DNA of 20,000 bases, taken from Chloroflexota bacterium. Lineage in GTDB: Bacteria; Chloroflexota; Chloroflexia; QHBQ01. The translations under genes were made by a program, and so were the position numbers. Under the pieces are notes generated by a model. That model searched no databases and was not told the origin of the DNA. It saw only the letters and a program-made list of their open reading frames with translations. The stretch lies in assembly GCA_043754535.1 (NCBI GenBank), contig JAYUUN010000120.1:60997-80996 (forward strand), written 5' to 3'. The stretch's first letter is position 1. The number at the start of each line of letters is the position of its first letter. This document shows, one piece after another, positions 1 through 20,000 of the stretch.

Positions 1-475
1 GGAGGGTCTCCTCTTGCACAAGGTCGCCGACGCGGATGCCAATGCGGGCTACCTTGTCCTGGTAAGCCGGGCCGATGCCCCGCTTGGTGGTGCCTACCGA
101 TTGGCCGCTGGCGGCACGGTTGGTCTCCTCCAACTGATCGAGCAGCGCATGGTAGGGCATGAGGACGTGGGCGCGTTCGCTGACCAGCAGGCGGTTGGTG
201 GGGATGCCCCGCGCCTCAAGCTCAGCCATCTCACCCAGCAAGGCAGCCGGGTCAACTACCACGCCGTTGCCGATCACTGCGATGATGCGGGGGTTGAAGA
301 TGCCAGAAGGGATCAGGCGCATCTTGAAGGTACCATGCTGGTTGACGATGGTGTGACCGGCGTTGGTGCCACCCTGGTAGCGCACTACTACCCGCGCCTG
401 CTCGGCAAGGAGGTCAACGATCTTCCCCTTGCCCTCGTCGCCCCACTGCGCGCCGATAATTGCCACGACTGCCAT
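1..475 (-). CDS. purA: Adenylosuccinate synthetase, 5' part (runs off the window start)
   Basis: Manual minus-strand translation from ATG 475 gives [23 protein letters not shown]...[11 protein letters not shown]...[21 protein letters not shown], the PurA signature motifs. Not in the ORF track because it has no stop in the window. Confidence 0.97.
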
Positions 476-527
476 GCTTGCCACTCCCGCCTCTCGTTTT
501 GACCCTCACTGCTGCCATCCTGGTCAA

Positions 528-561: not shown

Positions 562-2661
562 CTACTTGACCACGTGCAGGCTGCCGCGTCTCTTTGGCGT
601 TAGCTTAGTGGGCGGCTCCGCAGGCTCGGCGTGCTGGCCGTTGCCGTTGGCAGCACTGAGGCTACCGCTGGCGGGGTTGGGGCTGCCGTTGGCAGGCGGC
701 AAGGCGTTCTTTGGTGGGCGGCCCCGTCGCTTGCCGTTGGGATTGAGGGTGATGATGTTGCTGCCCCGACCTTGACCAGCCTCCGCCTCGTAGGATGAGC
801 TAGCAGGCTGACGGCTGCGCCTCGGCTCATCTGGGACAGAGCCGGGCAGTTTGCGCGGACGACCACGCTTCTTCTGCTCTGGTTGAGCGGGGCGGTGACG
901 GGCGGCTGCCTCAGCTTGTTCGACGATGAAGCCGACCGACCGGGCTAGTTCGCTGGGGTCTAGCAGTTCGCTCGCGTCCATGATCGTGTAGTGGTAGCCC
1001 TGCTCGGTGAGGAACAGTTGGCGGTTAGCGGCGAAGTCCTGATCGTTGCTGTCGCGGGTGACGATGCTGTAGAAGTGGGCGATCTGGCCGTCCTTCTTTG
1101 GGCGTAGGATGCGGCCCAGCCGTTGCGCCTCCTCCTGCCTGCTGCCAAAGGTGCCGCTCATCTGGATTGCTACGCTCGCATCGGGCAGGTCAATGGCGAA
1201 GTTCGCCACCTTGCTGACCACCAACACTTTTACCTCGCCAGTGCGGAACTGCTCGTATAGCACCTCGCGCTCAGAGTTAGGGGTTTTGCCAGTGACGAGC
1301 GGCGCGCCCAGCAAGTCGCTGATCAGCTTCAACTGCTCAAGGTACTGGCCGATCACCAGGATTTGCTCGCCTTCATGCTTCTTCAGCAGCTTCTGCATCA
1401 CCAGTAGCTTACGCACGTTCTCGGCGGCTAGTCGATACTTGATTCGGCTGTCCTCGGCAACAACGTACTCGCTGCGCTGCTCGTCGTCCAGGCCAATCCG
1501 TATCTCTGTGCAGTCGGCGGTGGCGATCCAGCCCTGCCTCTCCAAATCCTTCCAGGGGACATCGTACTTCTTCGGCCCGATCAGGCTGAACACGTCGGTC
1601 TCGCGGCCATCCTCGCGCACCAGGGTTGCAGTCAGGCCCAGGCGACGGCGGGCCTGGATTTCGGCGGTGATGCGGAAGACAGGAGCGGGCAGCAGGTGGA
1701 CCTCGTCGTAGATGATCAGCCCCCAGTCGCGCTCGTTAAAGAGGCCAAAGTGAGGGAACTCGCCGATCTCGCCCGTCTGCTCGTCCACCGTGAAGGGGCG
1801 GTAGGTCATGATCTGGTAGGTAGTAACGGTGACGGGGCGCACTTGCTTCTTCTCGCCAGTGTACTCACCCACCTGATCAGGGGTAAGGTCGGTCTTCTCC
1901 AACAACTCCTCGATCCATTGGCGCACCGCAATCGTGTTGGGGGTCATGATCAAGGTCTGGCATTGCAGCTTGTTGATCGTGCCAATGCCGACTACCGTCT
2001 TGCCCGCCCCGCAGGGAAGGACGATCACCCCACTGCCACCCCGGCTGCTACCACCCGCCCAGAAGGTATCTACCGCGTCCTGCTGATAGTGGCGCATAGC
2101 GAAGGGCTTGCCTGGCTCAAGTTCGCTGACGAGGCTGAGGACTAGCGGCGCACCCTCCACATAGCCCGCCAAATCCTCGGCAGGGTAGCCAAAGGCAACC
2201 AACTCCTGCTTGACGTGGCCGCGCTTAGCTGGGTCAACCAGGATGGTGAAAGCGTCCAACTGGCCGAGCAGGTAAGCAGCCATGCGCTTGCGGTGCATGA
2301 TCTCGGTGATCAGCAGCCTGTCCTCACTCTTGAGGACGAGCAGGCCATCGTCAGTCTTGAGCAGCTTGACACGACCGAAGCGGGCGACATACTCGCGCAC
2401 CTCGACGGCGACGTTGCTAGGCAGATCGAACTTGCTATACTGGGCCAGCACTGCTACTATTTGCTCCGCCGTCTCACCAGCCGCCGCCGCATTCCAAAGG
2501 CTGAGCGGGGTAATGCGGTAAGTATGGATGTGTTCGGGCGATTTCTCCAACTCAGCGAAGCGGGCCAGGTAATCGCGGGCTTCGCTGTAGAGCGGGTTGT
2601 CTACTTCGAGCAGCAGCGACTTGTCGCTCTGCACGACCAGCGGATTTTGTGGGTTGTACAT
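562..2661 (-). CDS. XPB/Rad25 (ERCC3)-family SF2 DNA repair helicase with a long basic disordered C-terminal tail
   Basis: N-terminal PLVVQSDKSLLLEV...FAELEKSPEHIHTYRITPLSLWNA typical of bacterial XPB. Walker A LPCGAGKT, DEVH, GLTATLVRED, QEEAQRLGRILRPK. Start is probably ATG 2661 (the ORF extends to 2718). Confidence 0.95.
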   Translation of the reverse strand: MYNPQNPLVVQSDKSLLLEVDNPLYSEARDYLARFAELEKSPEHIHTYRITPLSLWNAAAAGETAEQIVAVLAQYSKFDLPSNVAVEVREYVARFGRVKLLKTDDGLLVLKSEDRLLITEIMHRKRMAAYLLGQLDAFTILVDPAKRGHVKQELVAFGYPAEDLAGYVEGAPLVLSLVSELEPGKPFAMRHYQQDAVDTFWAGGSSRGGSGVIVLPCGAGKTVVGIGTINKLQCQTLIMTPNTIAVRQWIEELLEKTDLTPDQVGEYTGEKKQVRPVTVTTYQIMTYRPFTVDEQTGEIGEFPHFGLFNERDWGLIIYDEVHLLPAPVFRITAEIQARRRLGLTATLVREDGRETDVFSLIGPKKYDVPWKDLERQGWIATADCTEIRIGLDDEQRSEYVVAEDSRIKYRLAAENVRKLLVMQKLLKKHEGEQILVIGQYLEQLKLISDLLGAPLVTGKTPNSEREVLYEQFRTGEVKVLVVSKVANFAIDLPDASVAIQMSGTFGSRQEEAQRLGRILRPKKDGQIAHFYSIVTRDSNDQDFAANRQLFLTEQGYHYTIMDASELLDPSELARSVGFIVEQAEAAARHRPAQPEQKKRGRPRKLPGSVPDEPRRSRQPASSSYEAEAGQGRGSNIITLNPNGKRRGRPPKNALPPANGSPNPASGSLSAANGNGQHAEPAEPPTKLTPKRRGSLHVVK

Positions 2662-2731
2662 ACTTTGCGAATATTCCCCAGCGCAGTGTGAGATTTGCTG
2701 CGGCCCTGTCTGGCTCATTACAGCACTTGCC

Positions 2732-2765: not shown

Positions 2766-3623
2766 TTAGCCCCGGTTGAGGAAGGCGGTGAGGTAGACGA
2801 AGACCATGCCCAGCCCTGCGACCACGCTGAACTCGACCACCGCCCTGCTGGTCAGCCCCTCGGTCAGATAGAGAGCCATCAGGCCATAGAGGACGTAGAG
2901 GCTGAGGAGCAGGAACATCCCGCCAACCAGCGGTACTACCGGCCAGTAGTTGATTGCCCAGGTCACCTGCCCCAGCAGCAGCCCCGCCGCGCCCGCCAGC
3001 AGGAGGGAGCGGGTGTTTAGCCGTTCGGCCTCCTCGAAGCTGAAGCGACTGACCCCCGTCCCCAGCACACCGTAGCCGAGGCCACCCGCCCGCGTCAGCA
3101 TCTCGTAGATCAACAGCCCGCCAACGAACACTACCATGCCGCCTGAGAGGAGGGTGCGTACCTTGAACTGGTAGATCGAACTGAATAGGGCGAAGGCAGT
3201 CAAGTGGCTGATCAGGTTGAGGCTAGAGTTTGCCAGGCCGTAGTAGGTGTCGCGGCTATCCAGGCTGTGGTACTGGGCGATGAAGGTGACGCTGAGCGCG
3301 ATTACGGTGACGACCAGGATCACGCCGATAGCCACGCCGTCGCGGAAGATACGCAGAAAGAGGGCAGAGCCTAGCGTCAGCAAGGCAGGCAGCGACCAGT
3401 AGCGGGGGGCAATCTCGATCCTGGCAGTGCCGAAACGCAGGCGGGGGAAGGGCCAGAGTTGCGTGTGTGGGTGTGAGTGGACTGTATTCTCGGCCCCCAG
3501 TGCAGCAACGACCACCAGCACGGCCACGATTGGCAGCACAAGATTGGCCTCGGTGACGAAGAAGGTCAGGCCGAGGCCGACCATCAGGATCACCACTACG
3601 GTGGCGACCCGCTCAAGCCGCAT
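2766..3623 (-). CDS. Polytopic membrane protein (about 9 TM helices), possibly DUF5656-like
   Basis: Multiple hydrophobic segments and a WAINYWP motif near the C-terminus. The family name is from recollection only. Confidence 0.7.
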   Translation of the reverse strand: MRLERVATVVVILMVGLGLTFFVTEANLVLPIVAVLVVVAALGAENTVHSHPHTQLWPFPRLRFGTARIEIAPRYWSLPALLTLGSALFLRIFRDGVAIGVILVVTVIALSVTFIAQYHSLDSRDTYYGLANSSLNLISHLTAFALFSSIYQFKVRTLLSGGMVVFVGGLLIYEMLTRAGGLGYGVLGTGVSRFSFEEAERLNTRSLLLAGAAGLLLGQVTWAINYWPVVPLVGGMFLLLSLYVLYGLMALYLTEGLTSRAVVEFSVVAGLGMVFVYLTAFLNRG

Positions 3624-9171: not shown

Positions 9172-10893
9172 CTATTCGGGTGGTGGTGCCACGCTCTCCT
9201 CAGCGGTGGGCTGCGCGACAGCAGGCTTGCGGCGCGGCTTGACTTGTGGGGCAACTGGCAACTCAACCAGTTGCACACTGGGCTGCTCACCAGTTGACTG
9301 CGCGACGGCTGGCTTCGGTTTGCGCACACGCTTGGGCTTGGCTGGCCTAGCCATCACCTGCTCGTTGGCGGTCGGAGGCTCGTTGGGGCCGACGATCTCG
9401 ATTGCTCGCCCATACGCGCGCAGAAAGAGATCGGCCTTCACTCGTGCCTTCGCTACATCCTCGCTGAGGTCGGCCTCACCGATCAGGCGCAACGTTACCA
9501 GTTCGGGGCCAACGGTCAGGCGAAGCTCCGTCACCTCATGGGCGTGTTGGTAGTCTAGCGCGTCGGCGATACGGAGCAGGGCAGCCAGTCTCTCTACCCG
9601 CCCCTGCACTTCCTTGCTGAGGGCGGCAAACTCTGGGTGGCGCGGGTCGGGTAGGGAGCGGCGGTGATAGCGAGCGATCACCGCCACTTCCTCGCTCTGT
9701 GCTGCATCAAAGCCCGCCAGCTTTGCCTTGCGGATGATGCGGTATGAGTGCTTGTGATGCTCTTTCTCGTTGACCACTGCCCCAGCGTTGTGCAGGAAGG
9801 CGGCGATTGCTAGCAGCCTGCGCTCCTCTGCGTCGGCAGGGCGTAGTGCCGCTAGCTGGTCGTAAAGGCTAAGGGCTAGCTGCTCGGTTTGGCGGGCGTG
9901 GGGCCAATCCTCGACGGCCACACCGCCGCTGCGGTTTAGTTCTGCTTCGGTAGGGCCAGGCTGCTGGCTGAGGAGGGCTGCCCACGACGACTCGATCCGC
10001 TGCCACTTGCCGCTGCTTTGTAGGCGAGCCATGTAATCCTCGTACTCTTTGTGCAATGTCGCACGTCGGGCAGTGACTGTCGCCTGAGCAGGGCTGTCAG
10101 CGGTCAACAGACCGAGCAGTACGTCGGCATCATGAATCTCACCGAGCATAGTCTGCACCTCACGCAGCACCTTGAGGGTTGCGTCGGCGGGCGGGAGGAA
10201 GTAGCTGAACAACTCAACCGTGTAGCGCAGTTTCTTGACCGCGATCCGTAGCTCGTGTAGAGCCTTCCCATCGGGGTCGCTCTCCGCGGCGGCCATTGCC
10301 TCAACCACCGTGCCGAGGCGGAAGCGGAGCAGGGGTGTCACCGCTGGGCCAATTTCATCGCCCGGTTGGCCCTGCACGCTGTCTGCCTCGTCAACGGAAC
10401 GGTTAACCCTGCCACTGAGCAGCATATCGCTGATTGGCACCAGCCTCTCTTTGCCCTCATGGCCCGCCACAGTGCTGAGGTAATCCAGGGCTTCCAGCTC
10501 GCGTTCGCGCAACTCGCTGAGGGTGTCGGTCAGGCTCTCCACCTGCGGGCCGAGCCACTCGCGTAGGCGCAGTTGCAAGACAGCGGCATCGCGCGCCTCA
10601 CCCAGGGCGGCGGTCATGCTCTTGAGCCAGGCGCGCACCCCCTTCACCCGCTTGCGGTGCTTGTAGAAGGGGCCAAAAGCGTCCACTGCTGCTTGCAATC
10701 GGCGGCTGGCTACCCGCATCCGCTTGACGCTCTCGGTGTCCTTGTAGCTAAGTTCGTCCCAGCGTTCGCGGAAAGCCGCAAGCCGTTCTGCAATTACCGT
10801 GCGGGCAGTCTCCTCAATGGAGCCGCGCCCCTGGTCGTGAACTACAGCCTCCACTTCGTCACTCATCGCCACCACCTTTGCTCTGTCCGCCAC
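9172..10893 (-). CDS. CHAD domain fused to the Ppx/GppA C-terminal HD-like domain
   Basis: CHAD motifs RVASRRL, LGEARD, LHELRIAVKKLRY, QTMLGEIHDADV. Then HARQTEQLALSLYDQL...AAFLHNAG...HHKHSY...ARYHRR...LLRIADALD, typical of the Ppx C-terminal region. Confidence 0.88.
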   Translation of the reverse strand: MADRAKVVAMSDEVEAVVHDQGRGSIEETARTVIAERLAAFRERWDELSYKDTESVKRMRVASRRLQAAVDAFGPFYKHRKRVKGVRAWLKSMTAALGEARDAAVLQLRLREWLGPQVESLTDTLSELRERELEALDYLSTVAGHEGKERLVPISDMLLSGRVNRSVDEADSVQGQPGDEIGPAVTPLLRFRLGTVVEAMAAAESDPDGKALHELRIAVKKLRYTVELFSYFLPPADATLKVLREVQTMLGEIHDADVLLGLLTADSPAQATVTARRATLHKEYEDYMARLQSSGKWQRIESSWAALLSQQPGPTEAELNRSGGVAVEDWPHARQTEQLALSLYDQLAALRPADAEERRLLAIAAFLHNAGAVVNEKEHHKHSYRIIRKAKLAGFDAAQSEEVAVIARYHRRSLPDPRHPEFAALSKEVQGRVERLAALLRIADALDYQHAHEVTELRLTVGPELVTLRLIGEADLSEDVAKARVKADLFLRAYGRAIEIVGPNEPPTANEQVMARPAKPKRVRKPKPAVAQSTGEQPSVQLVELPVAPQVKPRRKPAVAQPTAEESVAPPPE

Positions 10894-10977: not shown

Positions 10978-12783
10978 TCAACCAAGCAGGCTGGTTTCGT
11001 CGCTGCTAATCGCCAGCAAGGCAGCGGCAACTGCTGGTAGATCGGCTGCATAACTGGCCGCCCGTTCCACCAGGTACTGCACTGCGGCGGGGTGGCGGTC
11101 GAGTTGCGGTAGCAGGTTAGCGATAATCGCGTCCTGCAAAGCCGCACGCAGGTCAGGGTAGGCGGCACGCGCAACCACGCAATAAGCCAGCACTTCGATC
11201 AGCAAGGCGGTGCCAACTGCCCTTCTTTCTCGCACCAGGGCAGTGAAGGCCAGCAGCGGCTCTAGCCCTACTGCCAGCACCTCGGCGATAGCGGCTGGCA
11301 GGTCGGTGACTGTAACCGCCCGCCGCTGCAAGTTCTCGGCAACGGCAGTGGGTAGGATCGCCCTCTCCTGCGCTGCATCCGGTAGGCCAACGCTGACCAG
11401 GGCGAAGCGGCGGCGCAGGGCGAAGCCGACGGCGTAGAGGCTGTTCAGGTCGTCGCTGTTCAGCGTCCCAATCAGGCGGAAGCTGGCGGGGATTGTGAGG
11501 TCGAAGGGTGCGCCTGCCGCCCGGCTGAGGAGCGGTACGTTGGGGTATTCGAGGACAGTGAACAGTTCGCCAAAGGCGCGGTCTAGGTTAGCGCGGTTGA
11601 ACTCGTCTACGATCAGGTAGTGTGGCGCGCCCGTCTCGGCCACGCTGGTCGTGCAGGCAAGGGCAGCGCGGCTGACCACCCCCGGTGCGTACTCGTAGGC
11701 TAGCCCCCCTGCGCCCGCCTGTGGCCGCAGGCCGCCTACCACCTCGTATGCGCTCCACTCTGGGTTGGCAGTAGCAGTACTGTAGTTGGCCGCCCCGCAG
11801 AACTGCTCGGCCAGTAGCATAGCGAGGCGCGTCTTGCCCACCCCTGGCGGCCCAGCCAGCAGCAGATGCCGCCCAGCCAGCAGGTGGGTGTAAGCCGCCC
11901 GCACTGTCTTCTCATCCACCGCCAGCACTCCTGCTACTGCTGCTCTAACCTGCGCGTAGCTGGGCGGCTGGTAGGTTGTGGGGGTGGCTGGCAGGGGGTA
12001 AGCAGCGGCAGCTTCGGCGATCTGCGTGTTACTGTTGGTCGCAGGCTCGTAGCCAGGCTCACTATCCTCCTCCTCGTCGCCAGGCTGGTCGTCACTAGTG
12101 GCTAGCGTGCGGCTGTTAGCGGCTAGCAGCGCAGCCTCGTAGAGCGGAAAGAGCGAGCGGAGCGTCTGAGCGATGCTCCCCACCACAGCGAGGCTGGCTA
12201 GTAGCGGGTCGTCTGCTGCATAATGCACCCCGACGAAGAAGGGTTCGTTGCCTACCTGCTCTGGGCTGGCAGGGCGCGGCTGCTGACCGAGGGTGTAGAG
12301 GTGTTCATCGGCACGGGCGAGGGTGGCGGCAAGCTGGCGGGCAAGCTCCCCCTCCTGCCACTGCTGTGCCGGGCTGAAACCAGGTAGCTGGCCGGAGTAG
12401 TAGCCCACATAGAGGCCGTCGCCGCTGATCCGCACCTGCAACTGCGGCGACTTGCTGACCGCGAAACGCGCCTGCCGCTCTGGTTGCCAGACGGAGAGCC
12501 ACATTTCCTCTCGCCAACGGCGCGGCTCGTTGTGGACGGCGCGGGCCTCGCTTGGCCTGACCTTGAGGCCCAGTTCGTAGGACTCGTAGCTAAGTTCGGG
12601 GCGCAGGGCTGCACTGAGTTCCTTCAGCCTATTGTAGGCGATGCGGGCGTGCTGCTCGGCGTGGACGGCGGCGGCAGCATCGGGGTAGCCCTCGCTGCCC
12701 GCGACGGCATTGAGGCGGGTGTTCTCCGCCAGCCCGTCGAAGTCGGCAGGTTGGAAGCCGCTGAAGCTGTTTGCTGCTGGCAT
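10978..12783 (-). CDS. McrB-like AAA+ NTPase with an uncharacterised N-terminal domain
   Basis: Walker A GPPGVGKT, Walker B LIVDEFNRA, AFGEL, NxxD signature (GTLNSDD), ALRRRF. Strong GGAGGTGA RBS upstream. Confidence 0.88.
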   Translation of the reverse strand: MPAANSFSGFQPADFDGLAENTRLNAVAGSEGYPDAAAAVHAEQHARIAYNRLKELSAALRPELSYESYELGLKVRPSEARAVHNEPRRWREEMWLSVWQPERQARFAVSKSPQLQVRISGDGLYVGYYSGQLPGFSPAQQWQEGELARQLAATLARADEHLYTLGQQPRPASPEQVGNEPFFVGVHYAADDPLLASLAVVGSIAQTLRSLFPLYEAALLAANSRTLATSDDQPGDEEEDSEPGYEPATNSNTQIAEAAAAYPLPATPTTYQPPSYAQVRAAVAGVLAVDEKTVRAAYTHLLAGRHLLLAGPPGVGKTRLAMLLAEQFCGAANYSTATANPEWSAYEVVGGLRPQAGAGGLAYEYAPGVVSRAALACTTSVAETGAPHYLIVDEFNRANLDRAFGELFTVLEYPNVPLLSRAAGAPFDLTIPASFRLIGTLNSDDLNSLYAVGFALRRRFALVSVGLPDAAQERAILPTAVAENLQRRAVTVTDLPAAIAEVLAVGLEPLLAFTALVRERRAVGTALLIEVLAYCVVARAAYPDLRAALQDAIIANLLPQLDRHPAAVQYLVERAASYAADLPAVAAALLAISSDETSLLG

Positions 12784-14228
12784 AAGCCGATCACCTCCTG
12801 CAATTGAGTTCGTAGTTGTGCCTGCATCGTCGCGAAGTCCCCCCCTGGGCGGAGTGGTAGGGCGTAGACCACCTTGCCCGCCTGGGCTGCGGGGTAGGCT
12901 ACCAGGGGGCCGTCACCAGGGTAGATGATGCCACCCACCGCCACGTTGAGGTCGTTCATGTAGGCCAACATCTTCATCATGTCATCGGTGCGGGCCTGCT
13001 CATTGTCGATCCGGTATTTGACATCCAGTAGCAGCCTCTGCTGGCCCACTTGCAGCAATAGGTCGGGTCTGGGGGCGCGGTTGCGGGCTAGCTGGCTGGT
13101 GAACCAGCCGCCTGCCACCGGCTGGTCGTAGCGTAGCAGCACCGACTGGCCGCCAAAGCTGCCGCTGAAGCTAGCCCCTCGCCTCAATTCTGCGTCGTCC
13201 TCGTGCAGACCGAGAGCCGCCGCCACCTCGCAGACGCACCAGAGTTCGTACAGCTTGTGCATCGGTTGCAGCCCGCTGAGATGCGCTGTCGGGTCGAGCG
13301 TCACGTAGCGGGTGGCAAAGTCGCGCCACAGCTTCAGCAGCCTGCTATACGCTGGGCTGCCGCCCGTCACCCCCTCACCGCTGCTGGCTGTGGTTAGTGG
13401 GCCTACGGCTGCTAGCAACTGCCGCTGCGTCCAGCCCTCGTGGGATACAGCGCGGGCGCGCAGGTCGGCGGCGATAGCAGAGTACTTGCCGCCTACTGCC
13501 CCGGCCATAGCGCGCATCTCTGCTGCTAGCTGACGGTGGAAGGCGACGAAGATACGATTGGCCTGTACATCATAGCTCTTGACCTCGCGCTGGCAGTCGT
13601 GCAGCAGGCCAGTGCTGGCGGGCTGGTTGGCCCAGCGGCGGGCGGTGGCTGCCCAGGACACGTGGCCGCGCAAGGGCAGGCTGACGAAGCGTTCACTCTC
13701 GCTGCGGTAGGCTAGCCGCTCGTAAATCGCGGGGCTGCCACCTAGCAGGTCGCGGCTGAAGGCCAATAGGCGTTCGACCGAGTAGGGCAGGCTGTAGAAG
13801 TGGTAAAGGCGGTCGCCGTCCGCGTCATAGCGCAGGCGGATCGCATTGCGGGCCTGCAAACGAGCGAGCAGTTGCGGGATGCGCTGCTCCTTGATCGCGG
13901 CCACCTCCGCCGCTGTCAGCTTGCTGGGCAGCACGGTTAGCTCCGCCGCTGCCAGCGATCCACCTCGCGCTGAGGGATCGCGCAGCTCCCAGCGCAGCAA
14001 ACCGCAGTAGTCTTCTACCTCAAAGCGATAGCTGGCCGACCCGCGCAGGCTGAGCGCAGCGGCCAGCAGTTCACCGCCTACGTAGAGATCGAGGCCATCA
14101 CGGGGCTGGTCAGCCGCAAGCTGTACCTCCACCGTGCTGTACTCGCGTACGGCAGCGAGTGGTTGGCGTAGGCCACTGCTGAACGGCGCGGCGGTTGGGT
14201 AGAAGGTTATGTCAACGTTGGTGGACAT
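12624..14228 (-). CDS. McrC-like (DUF2357-type) PD-(D/E)xK nuclease
   Basis: SYDVQANR, LYELWC, RPDLLL...LLDVKYR, DDMMKMLAY. N-terminal beta-rich domain ending LTVLPSKL. Confidence 0.85.
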   Translation of the reverse strand: MSTNVDITFYPTAAPFSSGLRQPLAAVREYSTVEVQLAADQPRDGLDLYVGGELLAAALSLRGSASYRFEVEDYCGLLRWELRDPSARGGSLAAAELTVLPSKLTAAEVAAIKEQRIPQLLARLQARNAIRLRYDADGDRLYHFYSLPYSVERLLAFSRDLLGGSPAIYERLAYRSESERFVSLPLRGHVSWAATARRWANQPASTGLLHDCQREVKSYDVQANRIFVAFHRQLAAEMRAMAGAVGGKYSAIAADLRARAVSHEGWTQRQLLAAVGPLTTASSGEGVTGGSPAYSRLLKLWRDFATRYVTLDPTAHLSGLQPMHKLYELWCVCEVAAALGLHEDDAELRRGASFSGSFGGQSVLLRYDQPVAGGWFTSQLARNRAPRPDLLLQVGQQRLLLDVKYRIDNEQARTDDMMKMLAYMNDLNVAVGGIIYPGDGPLVAYPAAQAGKVVYALPLRPGGDFATMQAQLRTQLQEVIGLCQQQTASAASNLPTSTGWRRTPASMPSRAARATPMLPPPSTPSSTPASPTIG

Positions 14229-14288: not shown

Positions 14289-14651
14289 TTAATAACTGCG
14301 CGACTCCTCGATCATTAGATGGTCGGCAAGGATCATGCGCTGGTTGATCAGGTCATTGGCTTCGGGCAGAGCCTGGCTGAGGATGACTACGCAACGAGCG
14401 ATGCTGTCCATCACCACCTGGCTCTTGATGCCTGCGTTGTAGACGACGGCCATTGCCTGCTGGCGGGTCTGCTGGTAGTCTTCCTCGTCGCCCTCAACCA
14501 GGTAGTGAGCGAACGCGTCGTATATGGCGACCGCGGTCTGCTCCAGGTTGATCGGGTAGGCTTTGACCGAGAGCGGCAGGTGGGTGATCAGGTCGGCGAG
14601 GATAGCTGGACGGAGACCGAGCAGCCGTTCGCTCAACACTTCTTTATTCAA
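14289..14651 (-). CDS. Small all-helical hypothetical protein, possibly a non-heme globin/RsbR-N-like fold
   Basis: TTG start with GGGAG RBS and amphipathic helices. The fold assignment is a pattern-based guess. Confidence 0.6.
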   Translation of the reverse strand: MNKEVLSERLLGLRPAILADLITHLPLSVKAYPINLEQTAVAIYDAFAHYLVEGDEEDYQQTRQQAMAVVYNAGIKSQVVMDSIARCVVILSQALPEANDLINQRMILADHLMIEESRSY

Positions 14652-16775: not shown

Positions 16776-16805
16776 ATAATAGCACAGCCACTGTCCCTCT
16801 GTCAA
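16776..16805 (-). promoter_or_regulatory. Promoter for fabG-fabF whose -35 overlaps the E1 stop codon
   Basis: TTGACA (16805-16800), 18-nt spacer, TATTAT (16781-16776) preceded by TGC. Confidence 0.6.
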
Positions 16806-18262
16806 ACAAACCGCCCGATTGCGTACTGCTGGCCGCAACTGGGGCATGACTGTGCCTGCTGACCGTGGCTGCCGAGGATATCGGCCACGCCATAGCGCAC
16901 CACCTGCCCCGGCCTGGCAATGCCGTAGGCCCAGCCGCCTGCTGTTTGCTGCGCGATATTGCCGCCAATATAACAGATGGCAGCGGCTGCTTGCCCTTGC
17001 TGAAACCAGGCTGCCCGCTCGGTCGCTGGGCGGGCAAGCTGGAGGGCGAGACGAGCCGCCACGTTCGCCGCTCGTCCGCTCTCCAACAGGGTTGCTGGCT
17101 CAGCCTGCAATGTGCTGGGATCACGGTCGTAGGCGGCCCGCTGCTCAGGGGTCAGTGCTGCTGTGGGGCCAGTGTAGAGGTGGCCGCGCACGCAGTCGAA
17201 GCACGGCCCCTGCGCGCCGTCCACCACCGTCACCTCAAAGTATAGGGCGCGGGGGTAGCAGCGGGCGATCAGGTGCGGCACCCCCAGCCGCCGCAGCACG
17301 CGGGCCGCTGCATAGTCAGCGTGGGTGCCAGTTGCCAGCAGCACGCAGGCGGGCCGCTCCCGCTCGATCAGCAGGGCAAAACGGCGCAGGCTACCCGGCT
17401 CGTCGCGCAGACGCAGGTGCCGTCCCCTTGCCCTGCCACCCAGTCGCCGCAAGTTGGCTGCCAGCGCGCCTGCCTTGCCATACCCAATCTGTAGCCGCTG
17501 GTAGAACTGGCGCGCTGGGTTGGCCGCCTCCATCTGCTCGTAGTCCAGGCAGACCACCGCCTGCCCCGCCAGCACGAGCGCGCGGGCGGCATAGCTGCCC
17601 ACGCTGCCGCAGCCGAGGACGACCACTGGCTGGCAGTTGAGGCTCGTAGCTGGCGGCAGGGCTGGCGCAGGGCTAGGCTGCTGGGCGTAAGCAACCCGCC
17701 AGGGCCAGCTTCCGCCTATGTGCAGCGTCATGGGGGTGCGCTCGCCAAGCAGGTAGGCACGGGCCACCTGGGCGGCATGATAGGCAAGGTCTAGCCCATC
17801 CAGGGCAGAGGGGTTGTAGGCAGATAGCTCCCTCTCCGCCTCCGCTTCAATCTCGGTGGCGTATAGGTAGAGGCGCACCTTGCCAGGCTGGACGAGCAGC
17901 AGCGGCACGGTTAGTGCTGCGCTAAGGCTGGCTAGCAAGGCCACTGTCACCTGATCGCCTGTGCCAAGTAGCAGGTGGGGACGGTAGCCAGCGAGTTGAC
18001 GGCGGGCGCGGGCGTAGCTAGCGGCGGTTAGCGGTGGCAGGCAGCGGTAGGCAGCCACGCCATAGCGGGCGCGCAGTTCGCGGGCGATGGGCGGCCCACC
18101 GACGGCGCAGAAGTCGGCTAGCCGATTGGCGGCCAGCAGGTGCAATACCTCGGCCAGGTTGCCGACCGCCGCCACCCGCTTGCCCGCCAACCCCGCGCCG
18201 ACGACTGGGACGACGCGGGCGAAGTAGATTTCTTCGCTCGGCTCCATCGTTTCATCGCTCAT
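16802..18262 (-). CDS. E1-like (ThiF/MoeB superfamily) enzyme: degenerate N-terminal adenylation domain plus C-terminal adenylation domain with a Zn site
   Basis: C-terminal half has VVVLGCGSVGS, LDYEQMEAANPARQ, IGYGKA, GPCFDC and a terminal CPSC. The N-terminus YFARV...LAGKRVAAVG resembles a ThiF start with a broken Gly loop. Confidence 0.85.
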   Translation of the reverse strand: MSDETMEPSEEIYFARVVPVVGAGLAGKRVAAVGNLAEVLHLLAANRLADFCAVGGPPIARELRARYGVAAYRCLPPLTAASYARARRQLAGYRPHLLLGTGDQVTVALLASLSAALTVPLLLVQPGKVRLYLYATEIEAEAERELSAYNPSALDGLDLAYHAAQVARAYLLGERTPMTLHIGGSWPWRVAYAQQPSPAPALPPATSLNCQPVVVLGCGSVGSYAARALVLAGQAVVCLDYEQMEAANPARQFYQRLQIGYGKAGALAANLRRLGGRARGRHLRLRDEPGSLRRFALLIERERPACVLLATGTHADYAAARVLRRLGVPHLIARCYPRALYFEVTVVDGAQGPCFDCVRGHLYTGPTAALTPEQRAAYDRDPSTLQAEPATLLESGRAANVAARLALQLARPATERAAWFQQGQAAAAICYIGGNIAQQTAGGWAYGIARPGQVVRYGVADILGSHGQQAQSCPSCGQQYAIGRFV

Positions 18263-18926
18263 AGTAAGGGTCGTACTCGCCGCCGTTGCCGTGCGCTGGC
18301 CCGATGAAGGCTTCTGCGCTGGCCTGCCCGCTGGCGACGCGGATCAGGCTGGCAAGGTGGTTGGCTACCCGCTGCTGCAAGACGACGCGGGCTGTCACCT
18401 GCCGCCAGCCACCGCCGCTGTAGAGGCAAAGTTGGTTGTTGCCCACGACGTGGTTGCTGGTCGTGGCTGCTACCTTCAGCAGGGTAAAGATGCGGGGGTC
18501 GTACTGCACTATCGGCGGGTAGCTCGGCCACTCGGCGGGATAGCTGAGTAGGAGCGGAGCGAGCAGCCAGAGGTTGCGGCCCACGCGGATCAGCGGGTGT
18601 GAAGGCACGATCTGCCGCTGCACCTTCACTGCGGCCCTGGGTCGTAGCATAGTGGGTAGGTAGCCATACCAACAGAGGGCTGCTACCCCCTCCTTCTTCA
18701 GTTCGCGGCCACAGCGCGGGCAGGTGGGCTTGCTGGCCCCCGCCTTGCTAAAGCCATAGGGGAGGTGGCAGGTAGGGCAGCCGAGCAGTGTGCCTGCCTC
18801 GCTCATCCCCAGTTGCCAGTGGGGGAAGTGGGCTGCCATCTCTGCCACCTCCTGCTCAAGCAGAGCGGGCCGCTGCTTCGCCCATTTCTGCGCCTTTGCT
18901 GCCGCTGCCAGATTCAGTTCGTGCAT
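18252..18926 (-). CDS. Prokaryotic E2/UBC-fold protein with a Zn-ribbon insertion
   Basis: LLEQEVAEMAAHFP helix 1, WYGYL, SYPAEWPSYPPIV, NHVVGNNQLCLY...W, plus CPTC/CPRC. Start at ATG 18926 with an AGGAGGT RBS (the ORF extends to 18956). Confidence 0.8.
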   Translation of the reverse strand: MHELNLAAAAKAQKWAKQRPALLEQEVAEMAAHFPHWQLGMSEAGTLLGCPTCHLPYGFSKAGASKPTCPRCGRELKKEGVAALCWYGYLPTMLRPRAAVKVQRQIVPSHPLIRVGRNLWLLAPLLLSYPAEWPSYPPIVQYDPRIFTLLKVAATTSNHVVGNNQLCLYSGGGWRQVTARVVLQQRVANHLASLIRVASGQASAEAFIGPAHGNGGEYDPYYER

Positions 18927-18979
18927 GGTATAATACCTCCTACTTGTCATCTTCACTAAAAGGAGTATCCTTGATGCTA
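18926..18979. promoter_or_regulatory. Compact divergent promoter region
   Basis: Plus-strand extended -10 TGGTATAAT at 18926-18934, AAGGAG RBS at 18960-18965, minus-strand AGGAGGT RBS, and a candidate minus-strand -10 TAGCAT at 18979-18974. Confidence 0.5.
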
Positions 18980-20000
18980 AAGAGGGTCGCTATTCTGCTC
19001 ATCTGTGCAGCCTGGCTGGTCGCCTGCGACAACAGCAGTCCCGTTCAGCCGACTAGCCCCAGTCAGCCACCAGTCCCCGCCACTGCCACCGTCGCTGCCC
19101 CAGCCACTGCCACCCCAGCCCGCGCAGAGCCGACTAGCACCGCGTCCATTCCTGCGACCAGCGTTGCTGTGCCGTCCAGCAGCCCGATCAGTAGCACGGC
19201 CAGCGTGCCAGTTGGTGGCCTGGGCCGCGAAGCGATCACCGTGGACGGCGTGCCAGTGGTCGCTATCAGCCTCGCGCCCAATGGGGCTGTCTACGCTGCG
19301 ACCAGCAAGGGCTTCTACCTGCGGAACGGTGACGACAATCAGGCGGCAGCCGACTGGGACTGGCAGCAAGTCAGCAACCGGGCTGGGCTGACCAACCTCG
19401 TTGCCCTCGACAACGATGTGCTGTTGGCGGGTGGCAAACCCCCCTGCGCCAGCGAGCAAAAGAGCATTCCCTTGCTGCGCTCGGCAGACGGAGGACGTAC
19501 CTGGAAGGAGAGCGGCATCTTCGCCCGTCCGGTAGAGACCCTCAGCGACGACGTGTTTGCTATCGGCTGCGAAGGCATCTACCGCTCGACCGACAACGGT
19601 GAGAGTTGGCAGTTGCAGCCCGATCTGAAGGCAGCCAACGGCGAGATCAGCGATCTGACTACTACTGCTGATGGCAAGAGTCTCCACTTCGTGGCAGTTA
19701 GCGAAGGCGGTAGCAGTGCGCTCTACTATGCGCCCAGCAAGATAGACCGCTGGCAGACCCCCACCCTGGTAGCCTCTAGCTGGGGTGGAGGCTTCGTGCG
19801 CCTCGGCCCGCCAGAGGCCACCATCTACTTCGGCTCCCCGCTGGGGTTGCTGTACGCCGAGGGAGCGCAGTGGCAGGCCGACAACGTCGGGCTGGACGCG
19901 GTGCGGTTGGTGGGCGACCCCCGCACCGCAGCCCTGAGTGCGGCTGACCAGGCAAAGATGCAGAGGGGTACCCTCACTGACCTGACCACCTACCAGCAAG
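18974..20000 (+). CDS. Lipoprotein with a Pro/Thr/Ser linker and BNR/Asp-box beta-propeller, partial
   Basis: Manual translation gives MLKRVAILLICAAWLVA-C lipobox and Asp-boxes LRSADGGRTW and IYRSTDNGESW. Open to the window end. Confidence 0.85.
   Translation, partial: MLKRVAILLICAAWLVACDNSSPVQPTSPSQPPVPATATVAAPATATPARAEPTSTASIPATSVAVPSSSPISSTASVPVGGLGREAITVDGVPVVAISLAPNGAVYAATSKGFYLRNGDDNQAAADWDWQQVSNRAGLTNLVALDNDVLLAGGKPPCASEQKSIPLLRSADGGRTWKESGIFARPVETLSDDVFAIGCEGIYRSTDNGESWQLQPDLKAANGEISDLTTTADGKSLHFVAVSEGGSSALYYAPSKIDRWQTPTLVASSWGGGFVRLGPPEATIYFGSPLGLLYAEGAQWQADNVGLDAVRLVGDPRTAALSAADQAKMQRGTLTDLTTYQQ

Follow-up and report, generated by a model that had tools for sequence, protein, structure and literature searches.

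A conserved bacterial E1-like protein with a tyrosine-bearing, cysteine-free crossover loop is encoded beside a cysteine-keeping E2-like protein

Introduction

To our knowledge, a catalytic cysteine was regarded as indispensable to all E1 enzymes before the work on the bacterial Bub systems. In ATG7 this residue lies in or just past the crossover loop. The available text of PMC2888440 gives the same placement for the catalytic cysteine of UBA5 and describes the Mg-binding aspartate of E1 enzymes as strictly conserved and required. For Bub, the available portion of the preprint (bioRxiv 10.1101/2024.11.21.623953) describes a Tyr/Ser oxyester route. The crossover loop of the Bub E1 (BubCD or BubBD) carries a tyrosine, Y370 or Y342, which is the proposed and mutationally supported site of a Ubl~Tyr oxyester and whose exchange for phenylalanine abolishes conjugation. 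For Y370 of BubCD, a distance of 3.7 Å to the adenylation site is reported. In Bil operons, as far as the source at hand describes them, the gene order is Ubl-E2-DUB-E1.

Here, we analyzed a window of 20,000 nucleotides from a Chloroflexota bacterium (the whole stretch of DNA under study) that encodes an E1-like and an E2-like protein. The E1-like gene with its tyrosine loop and its cysteine-keeping E2 is real and conserved; it forms part of a gene set, so far undescribed in bacteria, that resembles protein-tagging systems. A literature search that included the available text of PMC1779556 found no description of the family, relatives of which could be listed in supplements such as Table S1 of the Bub report.

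Fold and family of the E1-like protein

The features of the locus are collected in Table 1. Against Pfam, the E1-like protein matched ThiF (PF00899) over residues 211-359 with an E-value of 2e-09 (37.4 bits, cut-off 28.1). Its AF2 model (pLDDT 82.5, pTM 0.88) was closest, by VIA-align, to the bacterial E1 BilD (8tyz_A; Z 24.8, rmsd 3.2), with 351 residues aligned over model positions 13..479 at 13% identity. MoeB (1jw9_B) matched positions 150..477 with Z 22.9, and UBA5 matched the adenylation domain with Z 22.7. By sequence, the best PDB match was ATG7 (E 1.7e-10), the NPVRQ motif included. MccB was among the sequence matches as well (E 2e-08) and 3h9g_C among the structural ones, while residues 296-486 searched by sequence against the PDB gave a chance match only. 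Traits of the E1/ThiF-MoeB superfamily present in the protein are the fold, the Gly-rich loop, the conserved ATP aspartate, the Arg-Gln pair and the lysine. Judged from its model, the protein is an inactive-plus-active adenylation pseudo-dimer in a single chain, closest to bacterial BilD, and it is devoid of the helical Cys domain known from Bil or eukaryotic E1s.

Conservation was assessed in 27 aligned close relatives and in a superfamily set of 97 sequences, for which 1.84 billion representatives were scanned. In the N-terminal domain, R16 is arginine in 73/74 sequences of the superfamily alignment and G22 is conserved in 74/75; by analogy with E1 architecture, R16 is a candidate arginine finger. 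The first-pass annotation of the window had read C354/C357 and C473/C476 as zinc-binding pairs, and both are indeed present in the translated ORF. The two knuckles are lost together in one subclade (L010-L019), which reads GPAFEAIRG.

Table 1. Positions of the features discussed, numbered from the first letter of the window
Feature	Position	Strand	Basis or remark
E1-like gene	16802..18262	-	ORF, 486 aa
E1: N-terminal inactive adenylation-like domain (about residues 1-200) and C-terminal adenylation domain (about 205-486)			
E1: R16 in N-terminal YFARVVPVVG	18215..18217	-	candidate arginine finger of the inactive domain
E1: nucleotide-binding elements G217-x-G219-xx-G222, D240, N248, R251, Q252, K263	17474..17614	-	superfamily conservation
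E1: LLATGT, residues 308-313	17324..17341	-	G312 at position of E1 Mg-binding Asp
E1: RCYPRA, residues 334-339, with C335	17246..17263	-	end of strand beta5
E1: first zinc knuckle, C354-x2-C357	17192..17203	-	C354 at 17203-17201, C357 at 17194-17192
E1: crossover loop, residues 358-391, Cys-free	17090..17191	-	between helix 355-358 and long helix 392-410 of the model
E1: Y378, conserved loop tyrosine, candidate nucleophile	17129..17131	-	27/27 relatives
E1: PATLLE, residues 389-394, capping the long helix past the loop	17081..17098	-	conservation
E1: C430, opening core beta-strand CYIGG	16973..16975	-	strand 430-434 in model
E1: second zinc knuckle, C473-x2-C476	16835..16846	-	sequence
E2-like gene (P0039)	18252..18956	-	directly upstream of E1; 234 aa from GTG
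E2: zinc-ribbon insertion C60, C63, C79, C82	18711..18779	-	conservation
E2: C177 in NNQLCLYS, canonical catalytic-Cys position (H169-x7-C177)	18426..18428	-	conservation
Lipoprotein-like gene with BNR repeats, opposite orientation	18788..19999	+	signal MLKRVAILLICAAWLVAC
Promoter-like site between E1 and fabG	16776..16805	-	TTGACA-18-TATTAT, 11/12 matches, with TG

A cysteine-free crossover loop beside a cysteine-bearing E2

From V358 to P389, the crossover loop reads VRGHLYTGPTAALTPEQRAAYDRDPSTLQAEP. The lack of cysteine that the first-pass annotation had claimed for it was borne out over residues 358-391 and extends to the whole superfamily, in which none of 82 crossover loops contains one. 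Hence the canonical trait of thioester-forming E1s, a catalytic cysteine in the crossover loop or in an inserted domain, is absent from the protein. At the Cys frequency of this E1 (0.025), 32 residues in a row without cysteine are expected by chance with a probability of 0.45, so that the stretch is unremarkable by itself and the observation draws its weight from conservation. Mean pLDDT along the loop is 79 for residues 361-370, 70 for 371-380 and 53 for 381-390, so that the loop is modelled as flexible.

Y378, the loop tyrosine singled out at first reading, proved to be kept in all close relatives, whereas Y363 was rejected as nucleophile since its position varies (Q/V/H/A/R in seven relatives). 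Across the superfamily, 84 members have the PAT motif, and in 82 of them it is preceded by a tyrosine at a distance of at most 22 residues; the two exceptions are a mis-anchored regular expression (P0011, which reads AAYG) and a fragment of 166 aa. By hhalign (probability 99.9), Y378 is aligned to a tyrosine that is invariant (13/13) in the closest outgroup of canonical E1-like proteins. A plain alignment of all superfamily members by MAFFT has phenylalanine in the Y378 column in 30/85 sequences, and universality of the tyrosine requires accepting shifts of one or two columns in two subfamilies. As the loop tyrosine is never swapped for Cys, Ser or Thr, a structural aromatic role fits it as well as a catalytic one. 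The PATLLE motif past the loop is likewise conserved, with P389 in 85/88, A390 in 87/88, T391 as 81 Thr plus 5 Ser of 88 and E394 as 78 Glu plus 7 Asp of 88; T391-x-x-E394 probably forms a capping box.

The E2 ORF overlaps the start of the E1 gene by 11 nt, and its database form begins at M11 and comprises 224 aa. With the AF2 model (pLDDT 85), all 50 matches listed in a structural search of the whole PDB were UBC, UEV or RWD folds, among them Tsg101 UEV (Z 9.8), UFC1 (Z 8.4), CdnG-E2 (Z 7.7) and BubB (9eav_D, Z 7.2). PADLOC gave an E2 match (3.2e-06) for residues 19-59. According to the model, the protein has a UBC fold with a conserved cysteine downstream of a conserved histidine. C177 is cysteine in 42/43 rows, the sole exception being an alignment shift in a row that reads MCLY, and H169 is found in 43/43. 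The cysteine is also kept in the three E2s of the sister subfamily, and it aligns with that of GHLCLY in the outgroup E2. The zinc-ribbon cysteines are just as constant (C60 and C63 in 42/43, C79 and C82 in 43/43); the ribbon itself is not present in the outgroup E2. The first-pass reading of a Cys177-bearing E2 next to a Cys-less E1 is therefore supported. Because the loop, Y378 and the E2 cysteine are all conserved, the pairing is a conserved design and not the accident of a single gene.

On these grounds we propose, with a probability of roughly 0.45, that the protein is a working E1-type enzyme of an undescribed family that acts by adenylation, a Tyr378 oxyester and an E2 Cys177 thioester. 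The E1 would bind ATP and adenylate the C-terminus of a partner, most likely the small CxCC protein with a zinc ribbon whose gene lies upstream of that of the E2. The hydroxyl group of Tyr378 on the flexible crossover loop would then attack the adenylate to form an aryl oxyester of the kind reported for the tyrosine of Bub E1s. From there the acyl group would be transferred to the UBC-fold E2, carried as a thioester on Cys177 and finally passed to a target.

Since a good nucleophile is retained in the E2, the chemistry does not demand that the E1 form a covalent intermediate. The E1 might only adenylate, with E2 Cys177 attacking the adenylate directly and Tyr378 clamping or gating the substrate tail under the crossover loop. 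We regard this as somewhat unlikely. It would agree with the retention of the E2 cysteine in the window's subfamily and the sister subfamily and with the failure of the loop tyrosine ever to be exchanged for another nucleophile. The conserved aromatic residue of the substrate tail could stack on the tyrosine, and relatives of the MoeB and ThiF type, which adenylate without an E1 thioester intermediate, match the domain at Z 22-23. However, the E2-partnered E1s described in the sources at hand use an E1-bound intermediate, with Cys in Bil and Tyr in Bub, and the tyrosine sits on the mobile segment where the nucleophiles of Bil and Bub are located.

The nucleotide-binding site

The oxyester route proposed above would include adenylation in spite of a missing magnesium ligand. 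In the first-pass annotation the DxxD segment had been read as LLATGT; the absence of the Mg-binding aspartate stands, but profile alignment puts the position of MoeB D130 on G312 rather than a DxxD pair. By hhalign, LLATGTH lies opposite IAATDDP of the outgroup, the aspartate of which is aligned to that of MoeB (in DCTDN) and that of UBA5 (in CVDN). The Mg-binding aspartate after strand beta4 (D130 in MoeB, D183 in UBA5) is thus replaced by G312, and position 312 is glycine in 81/91 superfamily sequences, so that adenylation may be altered or lost.

If it were lost, the domain would be dead, and the E2, the chaperone and the other operon products would be served by the protein as a scaffold or as a sensor of nucleotides. 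Besides the glycine, the Pfam ThiF score of just 37 bits and the lack of any Pfam match at E 0.01 for the subfamily B E1 would fit such a role. Inactive adenylation domains normally lose their ATP-site residues, whereas in three deeply diverged subfamilies the Gly-rich loop, D240, R251, Q252, K263 and R16 are about 99% conserved (G217 86/87, G219 87/87, D240 90/90, R251 88/89, Q252 89/89, K263 88/89). The loop tyrosine and the PAT..E cap are kept as well. A dead enzyme is argued against by the conservation of these ATP-site residues, at least 86/87 for each, together with that of R16, and we consider it quite improbable.

Gene neighborhood and the small CxCC protein

In loci with room for the comparison, the E2 gene lies directly upstream of the E1 gene in 11/13 cases and is in turn preceded by a gene for a small protein in 9/10. 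The small protein is a CxCC zinc-ribbon with a conserved tail, (I/V)DLSxxxY(A/S), and an aromatic residue near the C-terminus; it occupies the position of a Ubl gene and ends in YA or YS with no terminal glycine. It is accompanied by an Hsp70-like gene in the window's subfamily (subfamily A) and by JAB and ClpB-like genes in the sister subfamily, where the genes for the small protein, the E2, a JAMM-motif protein and the E1 follow one another in this order. The JAMM-motif protein was seen only in the subfamily B operon, where the small protein has further residues beyond a conserved FY, and its motif was seen directly in the sequence. The operon with the Hsp70-like gene comprises six genes, for the Hsp70-like protein, a hydrolase-like protein of 262 aa, a zinc-ribbon repeat protein, the small protein, the E2 and the E1. 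Pfam matches to JAB or Ubl families were not found among the subfamily A operon proteins scanned. Atlas look-ups gave weak JAB rows (TM about 0.32 on a poor model) for a 313-aa protein and 0.87 for an isochorismatase-like family for the 262-aa protein; we take both as leads only, and for the 313-aa protein the JAMM motif is the better evidence. The predicted complex of E1, ATP, Mg and the small protein (46-130, from L001) scored 0.01 against a mark of 0.32, a value that counts neither for nor against binding as the fold of the partner is uncertain.

In the window's lineage, the lipoprotein-like gene, whose BNR match in Pfam (1.3e-05) is below the cut-off, parts E2 and E1 from the remaining operon; in L001, a relative with 94% identity, it is located between the genes for the small protein and the E2. 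The genes fabG and fabF were rejected as members of the system: they follow the E1 gene only in the window and in L001, and a strong promoter-like site precedes fabG. The system occurs in 12/151 sampled genomes of the class, or 6/52 genera, a patchy spread typical of accessory stress or defence modules.

The properties of the small protein bear on another possibility, namely that the E1-like protein modifies its C-terminus in place in the manner of MccB or PaaA, by adenylation followed by cyclization or nucleotide attachment, while the E2 acts as an adaptor. The candidate substrate is short and apparently non-Ubl with a conserved tail not ending in glycine, and the matches by sequence and structure include both MccB and PaaA. 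The chances of this are nevertheless slim, as the catalytic Cys and His of the E2 are strongly conserved, the sister subfamily carries a JAMM-motif peptidase in the order Ubl-E2-DUB-E1, and the fold of the whole chain is closest to conjugating E1s.

Other candidate nucleophiles

C335 in the ARCYP stretch had been named in the first-pass annotation as a residue to be weighed against Y378. RCYPRA is kept in 27/27 close relatives, but C335 is invariant only within its own subfamily; among 90 superfamily sequences the position is Cys in 55 and Ala in 33, and it stands opposite Leu in the outgroup. C430 is cysteine in 68/87 superfamily sequences and elsewhere F, V, L or Y. That the nucleophile is C335 (within its own subfamily) or T391 at the head of the long helix is the least probable of all readings, for although T391 is Thr or Ser in 86/88 sequences and lies roughly where UBA5 has its catalytic Cys250, T391-x-x-E394 reads as a helix-capping box with Leu in the outgroup (EPAL/EPGL), and C335 sits at the end of a core strand.

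Comparison with known systems

By sequence, the adenylation domain is most closely related to proteins encoded in prokaryotic E2-JAB-E1 triad operons (ThiF, Prok-JAB and an E2-like protein; outgroup locus L033). The E1-like protein of this outgroup shares the loop tyrosine and an EP(A/G)L cap (hhalign probability 99.9), its E2 is homologous to the E2-like protein and has the same cysteine (probability 93.8), and SPFH/Band_7 genes occur in both the outgroup and the subfamily B operons. In contrast to the window's family, the outgroup keeps the Mg-binding aspartate (ATDD/S) and lacks both an inactive N-terminal adenylation domain and an E2 zinc ribbon, and a small CxCC protein was not seen in it. 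DUF6527, which according to the Bub text available is always present in Bub operons, was found in 0/3 outgroup-bearing genomes (98-100% complete), and by this test the outgroup is not Bub. Searched against the PDB, the outgroup profile had MoeB, UBA5 and ThiF as its leading matches, and BubCD was not among the best 60 of 82; the C-terminal part of P0158 gave nothing relevant. With regard to a link between the outgroup and Bub, a scan of viral_contigs revealed no relative and tblastn against plasmids found nothing. As a separate observation, the spacing from Arg to Tyr ranges from 119 to 123 over six measured outgroup members and is 123 in five of them, the same as for R219/Y342 of E. coli BubBD in the available Bub text, which is a lead at the level of coincidence only.

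Together with this outgroup and its canonical aspartate, the family suggests that E1s of the tyrosine-loop kind occur more widely and can work with ordinary cysteine E2s. A Tyr-loop E1 acting with a Cys-E2, if true, would be a third chemical layout of the E1-E2 relay. With its loss of the Mg-binding aspartate from a retained ATP site, a candidate modifier that is apparently not beta-grasp and its linkage to chaperones, the locus offers a compact test case that bears on the minimal needs of an E1 and on what can act as 'ubiquitin'. It is conceivable, albeit unlikely, that the gene set constitutes an unrecognized conjugation system in which the modifier, instead of a beta-grasp Ubl, is a small zinc-ribbon protein whose flexible tail ends in a conserved aromatic residue. 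Trimmed by JAB where needed, it would be passed from an E1 without Cys and Mg-Asp as a tyrosyl ester to a Cys-E2, in a mixed relay from oxyester to thioester that works with an Hsp70-like or ClpB-like chaperone.

The link to Bub drawn at the outset holds for the mechanism and fails for the operon. As far as the Bub preprint is available, Bub E1s and the E1-like protein have in common a Cys-free crossover loop with one invariant tyrosine. The Bub E2, by contrast, has an invariant catalytic Ser (plus His/Asp or Lys/His) where a conserved Cys is found here, Bub E1s are homodimeric and fused to JAB or E2 whereas the E1-like protein appears as a pseudo-dimer of inactive and active adenylation domains, and Bub Ubls are beta-grasp proteins that terminate in Gly, in contrast to the YA or YS of the small CxCC protein. 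DUF6527 (PF20137) was not detected in the window's own genome (88.9% complete) or in four of five relatives' genomes, the fifth containing a weak, lone frame of 41 aa with no E1 nearby. Lacking a Ser E2, DUF6527 and a fusion of the E1 to JAB or E2, the operon is not Bub.

ATG7, UBA5 and MoeB-ThiF differ from the E1-like protein in keeping the Mg-binding aspartate. With regard to Bil, as described in the sources at hand, the modifier-E2-JAB-E1 order of the sister subfamily matches that of Type I/II operons. Bil operons contain a beta-grasp Ubl and a JAB peptidase, for neither of which a Pfam match was obtained with the subfamily A proteins scanned. BilD (8tyz/8tz0) resembles the E1-like protein in combining inactive and active adenylation domains with a four-Cys zinc site; yet it carries a mobile helical CYS domain of about 80 residues with the catalytic C417 in the crossover loop, where the E1-like protein has a short, Cys-free insert that bears a tyrosine.

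An invariant tyrosine in the cysteine-free loop of E1

The first-pass annotation had described an E1-like protein with a crossover loop that lacks cysteine and carries Tyr378, with the zinc pairs C354/C357 and C473/C476 and with the motif LLATGT. All of these features were confirmed where it had placed them, with LLATGT at residues 308-313. At the composition of E1, a 32-residue run free of cysteine has a chance probability of 0.45, so that the loop matters only through its conservation.

A word-indexed search for relatives returned only 11 proteins. The 19 E1-related genomic loci comprise 16 from MAGs labelled Chloroflexia, Chloroflexales, Chloroflexi, Roseiflexaceae, Herpetosiphonaceae, Oscillochloris or Chloroheliaceae, and one each labelled Anaerolineae, Ardenticatenales and 'bacterium'. 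The family has a scattered distribution, being present in 12 of 151 genomes sampled from the class and in 6 of 52 genera, and no description of it was found in the literature searched. In the 27-row E1 alignment, R334, C335, Y336, P337, R338, A339, E343, R359, G365, P366, T371, E373, Y378, P389, A390 and T391 are invariant, a set unchanged when L012, L016 and P0004 were left out. Tyr378 is thus kept throughout, as the first-pass annotation had asked of it, and Y363 is variable (Q, V, H, A or R in 7 rows).

Scanning 1.84 billion representatives with a profile gave 97 proteins at E <= 1e-30. Alignment of the window E1 with 96 of the best matches (MAFFT) shows three subfamilies: A, which contains the window E1 ('ATGT', 'RCYPRA', '..AAY[SD]..EPAT'), B ('AMGR..DDNF', 'AFPGxTHFK', '..MFYGGTQPAT') and C ('ATGTHHH', '..FLY....LVAEPAT'), the last including one protein from a Pseudomonadota MAG. 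Column 378 of the raw alignment reads Y 50, F 30, L 3, A 1 and P 1 (n=85); in the Phe rows a tyrosine lies 1-2 columns away, as judged by eye and by motif-anchored count. Of the 84 PAT-bearing sequences, 82 have a tyrosine no more than 22 residues ahead of the motif; a 166-aa fragment and P0011, which was mis-anchored ('ELAAYG'), account for the other two. None of 82 loops running from the zinc knuckle (or the corresponding position) to PAT holds a cysteine; only Tyr-containing loops were taken, which biases the count for tyrosine and not that for cysteine.

The E2-like partner and the surrounding genes

Cys177 of the E2-like neighbour lies in 'NNQLCLYS'. The model of this protein is good (pLDDT 85), and all 50 structural matches listed are UBC, UEV or RWD folds, among them Tsg101 UEV (Z 9.8), UFC1 (8.4), CdnG-E2 (7.7) and BubB (7.2); a four-Cys zinc ribbon is inserted in the fold. 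Cys stands at position 177 in 42 of the 43 rows, the odd one being an alignment shift, and H169 is His in all 43. E2 directly precedes E1 in 11 of 13 loci with room; L008 and L014 have upstream sequence and no E2, and six further loci were too short to be counted.

Nine subfamily A loci share a gene set further upstream of E2 (see table). Of the 10 loci with room for the small CxCC protein, 9 encode it, and its tail usually forms the very C-terminus. The 262-aa protein, with 'QFGRHCVPGE' and 'GGWSIIK.LFCGVWEL.HHGIPD', shows much stronger conservation than either E1 or E2. It has no Pfam match; an atlas look-up (0.87) offers, as a lead only, an isochorismatase-like family and fold, and it could be the hydrolase of the system. 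In two of the 170-270-aa proteins the CxCC module of the small protein occurs twice internally (HMM matches); the versions in L001, L002, L004 and L006 have no CxCC copies and a weak fn3 match instead. In the window's own genome the upstream half of the operon lies at the very end of contig C132 (G000:C132) and E2-E1 on C120; the assembly does not join the two. In L001, the 94%-identical relative, a lipoprotein gene in opposite orientation stands between the upstream half and E2.

Coordinates of the features discussed (window positions unless a locus or contig is named)
Feature	Location	Strand	Remark
E1-like gene	16802-18262	-	486 aa
Tyr378 of E1	17131-17129	-	in Cys-free loop
Cys-free loop VRGHLYTGPTAALTPEQRAAYDRDPSTLQAEP	E1 residues 358-389	-	holds Tyr378
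E2-like gene	18252-18956	-	directly upstream of E1, 11-nt overlap
BNR-repeat lipoprotein gene	18788-19999	+	inverted; splits operon in this lineage
Small protein, 75-130 aa	directly before E2		invariant C-x-C-C...C, tail '(I/V)DLSxxxY(A/S)'
Hsp70-like gene	upstream of E2, nine loci		Pfam HSP70 4e-70
262-aa protein gene	upstream of E2, nine loci; L021 (own genome, contig C132) 6643-7431; L001 4403-5191; eight other loci		very conserved
170-270-aa protein	upstream of E2, nine loci		
Internal-CxCC proteins, third operon gene	L012 5240-6031; L017 5270-6073		tail absent
JAMM-motif protein, subfamily B	L022 6054-6995; L024 5939-6940; L025 6081-6989		302-333 aa, between E2 and E1
Outgroup operon L033, Chloroflexia genome	G020:C3:136000-148500		two RWD-type proteins, 162-aa Cys-E2 ('GHLCLY'), Prok-JAB, ThiF E1 with loop Tyr, Band_7, HerA-like ATPase
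XPB/ERCC3-type helicase gene	562-2718	-	ERCC3_RAD25_C 1.1e-43, Helicase_C_3 6.6e-36
DUF5656 protein gene	2766-3623	-	2.8e-34; adjoins helicase
573-aa protein gene	9172-10893	-	CHAD 4.8e-34, Ppx/GppA domain III 3e-23
McrBC-like gene pair	10978-12783; 12624-14228	-	
120-aa ORF	14289-14651	-	between fabF and McrC-like gene

Among the other genes of the window, fabG and fabF follow E1 only here and in L001 and have their own promoter-like site; they were rejected as system members. The 120-aa ORF, conserved only in L001, has no match in Pfam or PADLOC. The McrBC-like pair, which lies a few kb downstream of E1, is probably a defence module of the restriction type; its 601-aa member carries AAA_5 (4.4e-18), and the 534-aa one gives weak McrBC (1e-3) and PD-(D/E)XK (3e-3) matches, both below cut-off.

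In four metagenomic loci of subfamily B the order is SPFH-like protein, membrane protein, small CxCC protein, E2, JAMM-motif protein, E1, ClpB-like protein (double AAA+; AAA_2 7.7e-66) and TPM protein. The E2 cysteine is kept. The protein between E2 and E1 carries E...HxH-x7/8-S-x-x-D, a JAMM motif, and no Pfam JAB match at E 0.01. Small proteins here end in '..DLNRDQFYSN', '..DLSNQKFYKPNGDCR' or '..NLEGDGFY', that is, in a conserved aromatic position followed by 0-7 variable residues, a pattern shared with peptidase-trimmed Ubl precursors.

In the best-supported reading, with a probability of about 0.45, E1 would adenylate the C-terminus of the small CxCC protein, Tyr378 would attack the adenylate to give an oxyester, and the small protein would pass from Tyr378 to Cys177 of E2 and from there to the target. 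Less likely, and first among the rivals, is that the E2 cysteine attacks the adenylate directly, with the tyrosine retained as a clamp, a course that would draw on the same conserved Cys177.

Nucleotide site and architecture of E1

ATP-site residues are near-invariant across all three subfamilies: G217 (86/87), G219 (87/87), D240 (90/90), N248 (86/89), R251 (88/89), Q252 (89/89) and K263 (88/89). The inactive domain has an N-terminal 'YFARV' motif whose arginine, R16, is a candidate arginine finger and is found in 73 of 74 sequences. In the profile alignment 'LLATGTH' pairs with 'IAATDDP' of the nearest outgroup, the Asp of which aligns with the D of MoeB 'DCTDN' and UBA5 'CVDN'; G312 therefore occupies the position of the Mg-binding Asp, and it is Gly in 81 of 91 sequences. 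The UBA5 study (PMC2888440) describes this Asp as strictly conserved and needed for adenylation; the first-pass remark that the usual Mg-binding segment is replaced was right in substance. D316 or E394 (PAT..E cap) may provide substitute carboxylates. A dead or sensor adenylation domain would fit the missing Asp; beside the near-invariant ATP site we consider it improbable.

Pfam ThiF covers residues 211-359 (2e-09). The profile of E1 relatives best matches the ATG7 adenylation domain in the PDB (1.7e-10), followed by Uba1, TcdA, Cap2, MccB and UBA5. In-place modification by E1 in the manner of MccB would agree with that match; it is improbable. The AlphaFold2 model, for which 24 relatives were used, has high confidence (pLDDT 82.5, pTM 0.88) and aligns nearly full length (13..479) with BilD (8tyz_A; Z 24.8, rmsd 3.2, 351 residues); Uba1, UBA6 and UBA7 also align over almost all of it (Z about 23), and MoeB, ThiF and UBA5 cover residues about 150-479 (Z 22-23). 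E1 is therefore one chain that pairs an inactive with an active adenylation domain as a pseudo-dimer. In one subclade, L010-L019, all four zinc cysteines have been lost as a set (e.g. 'GPAFEAIRG') and the C-terminus is truncated, with the loop Tyr, RCYPRA and PAT retained; the zinc site is therefore dispensable.

The first-pass annotation had named another conserved cysteine, such as that of ARCYP, as an alternative; C335 proved invariant in the 27 rows but is C in 55 and A in 33 of 90 superfamily sequences, and a nucleophilic role for it or for T391 is the least probable of the readings. At position 430, 68 of 87 sequences have Cys and the rest F, V, L or Y, as suits a buried residue of a strand.

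The next-best scan matches are ThiF-type proteins of the ordinary kind, with the Asp still in place ('ATDD/S'). Their tyrosine in 'DYG...EP(A/G)L' is invariant (13/13) and aligns with Y378 (hhalign probability 99.9); JAB-E1 fusions occur among them (P0158, PADLOC JAB match; P0187, motif by eye). The E2 of L033 is homologous to the window E2 and has the same Cys (probability 93.8). In view of this Asp-keeping outgroup the loop Tyr is older than the Asp loss, and it already stands alongside a Cys-E2. SPFH/Band_7 genes in both L033 and the subfamily B operon hint at shared cassette ancestry.

Comparison with Bub and Bil

According to the Bub report, Bub E1s have a loop with no Cys and a single invariant Tyr (Y370 and Y342), the change of which to Phe abolishes conjugation, Bub E2s use Ser, and DUF6527 is present in all Bub operons (bioRxiv 10.1101/2024.11.21.623953). 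Of these features, only the Cys-free loop with its invariant Tyr is common to Bub E1 and the window E1. The Bub E2 has Ser, whereas ours has Cys, and the Bub E1 is a JAB- or E2-fusion, whereas ours is an IAD-AAD chain (inactive and active adenylation domains). DUF6527 was not found in the window's own genome (88.9% complete) and is absent from four of five relatives' genomes, the fifth having an isolated 41-aa frame. It was likewise found in none of three outgroup-bearing genomes, so that by this marker the outgroup is not Bub. Given the Cys-E2, the absence of DUF6527 and the IAD-AAD chain, the window system is not a Bub member; if a Tyr oxyester is formed, E1 would work like Bub at the E1 step only.

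The pseudo-dimer is the architecture of BilD and of eukaryotic E1s, as described in the Bil report (bioRxiv 10.1101/2023.09.26.559546); BilD has a helical Cys domain of ~80 residues, which the window E1 lacks. The subfamily B order small protein-E2-JAB-E1 equals the Bil order Ubl-E2-DUB-E1 in the same report, and on positional evidence only the zinc-ribbon protein would therefore occupy the modifier's slot. If confirmed, this candidate non-Ubl modifier would set the family further apart from known E1 systems.
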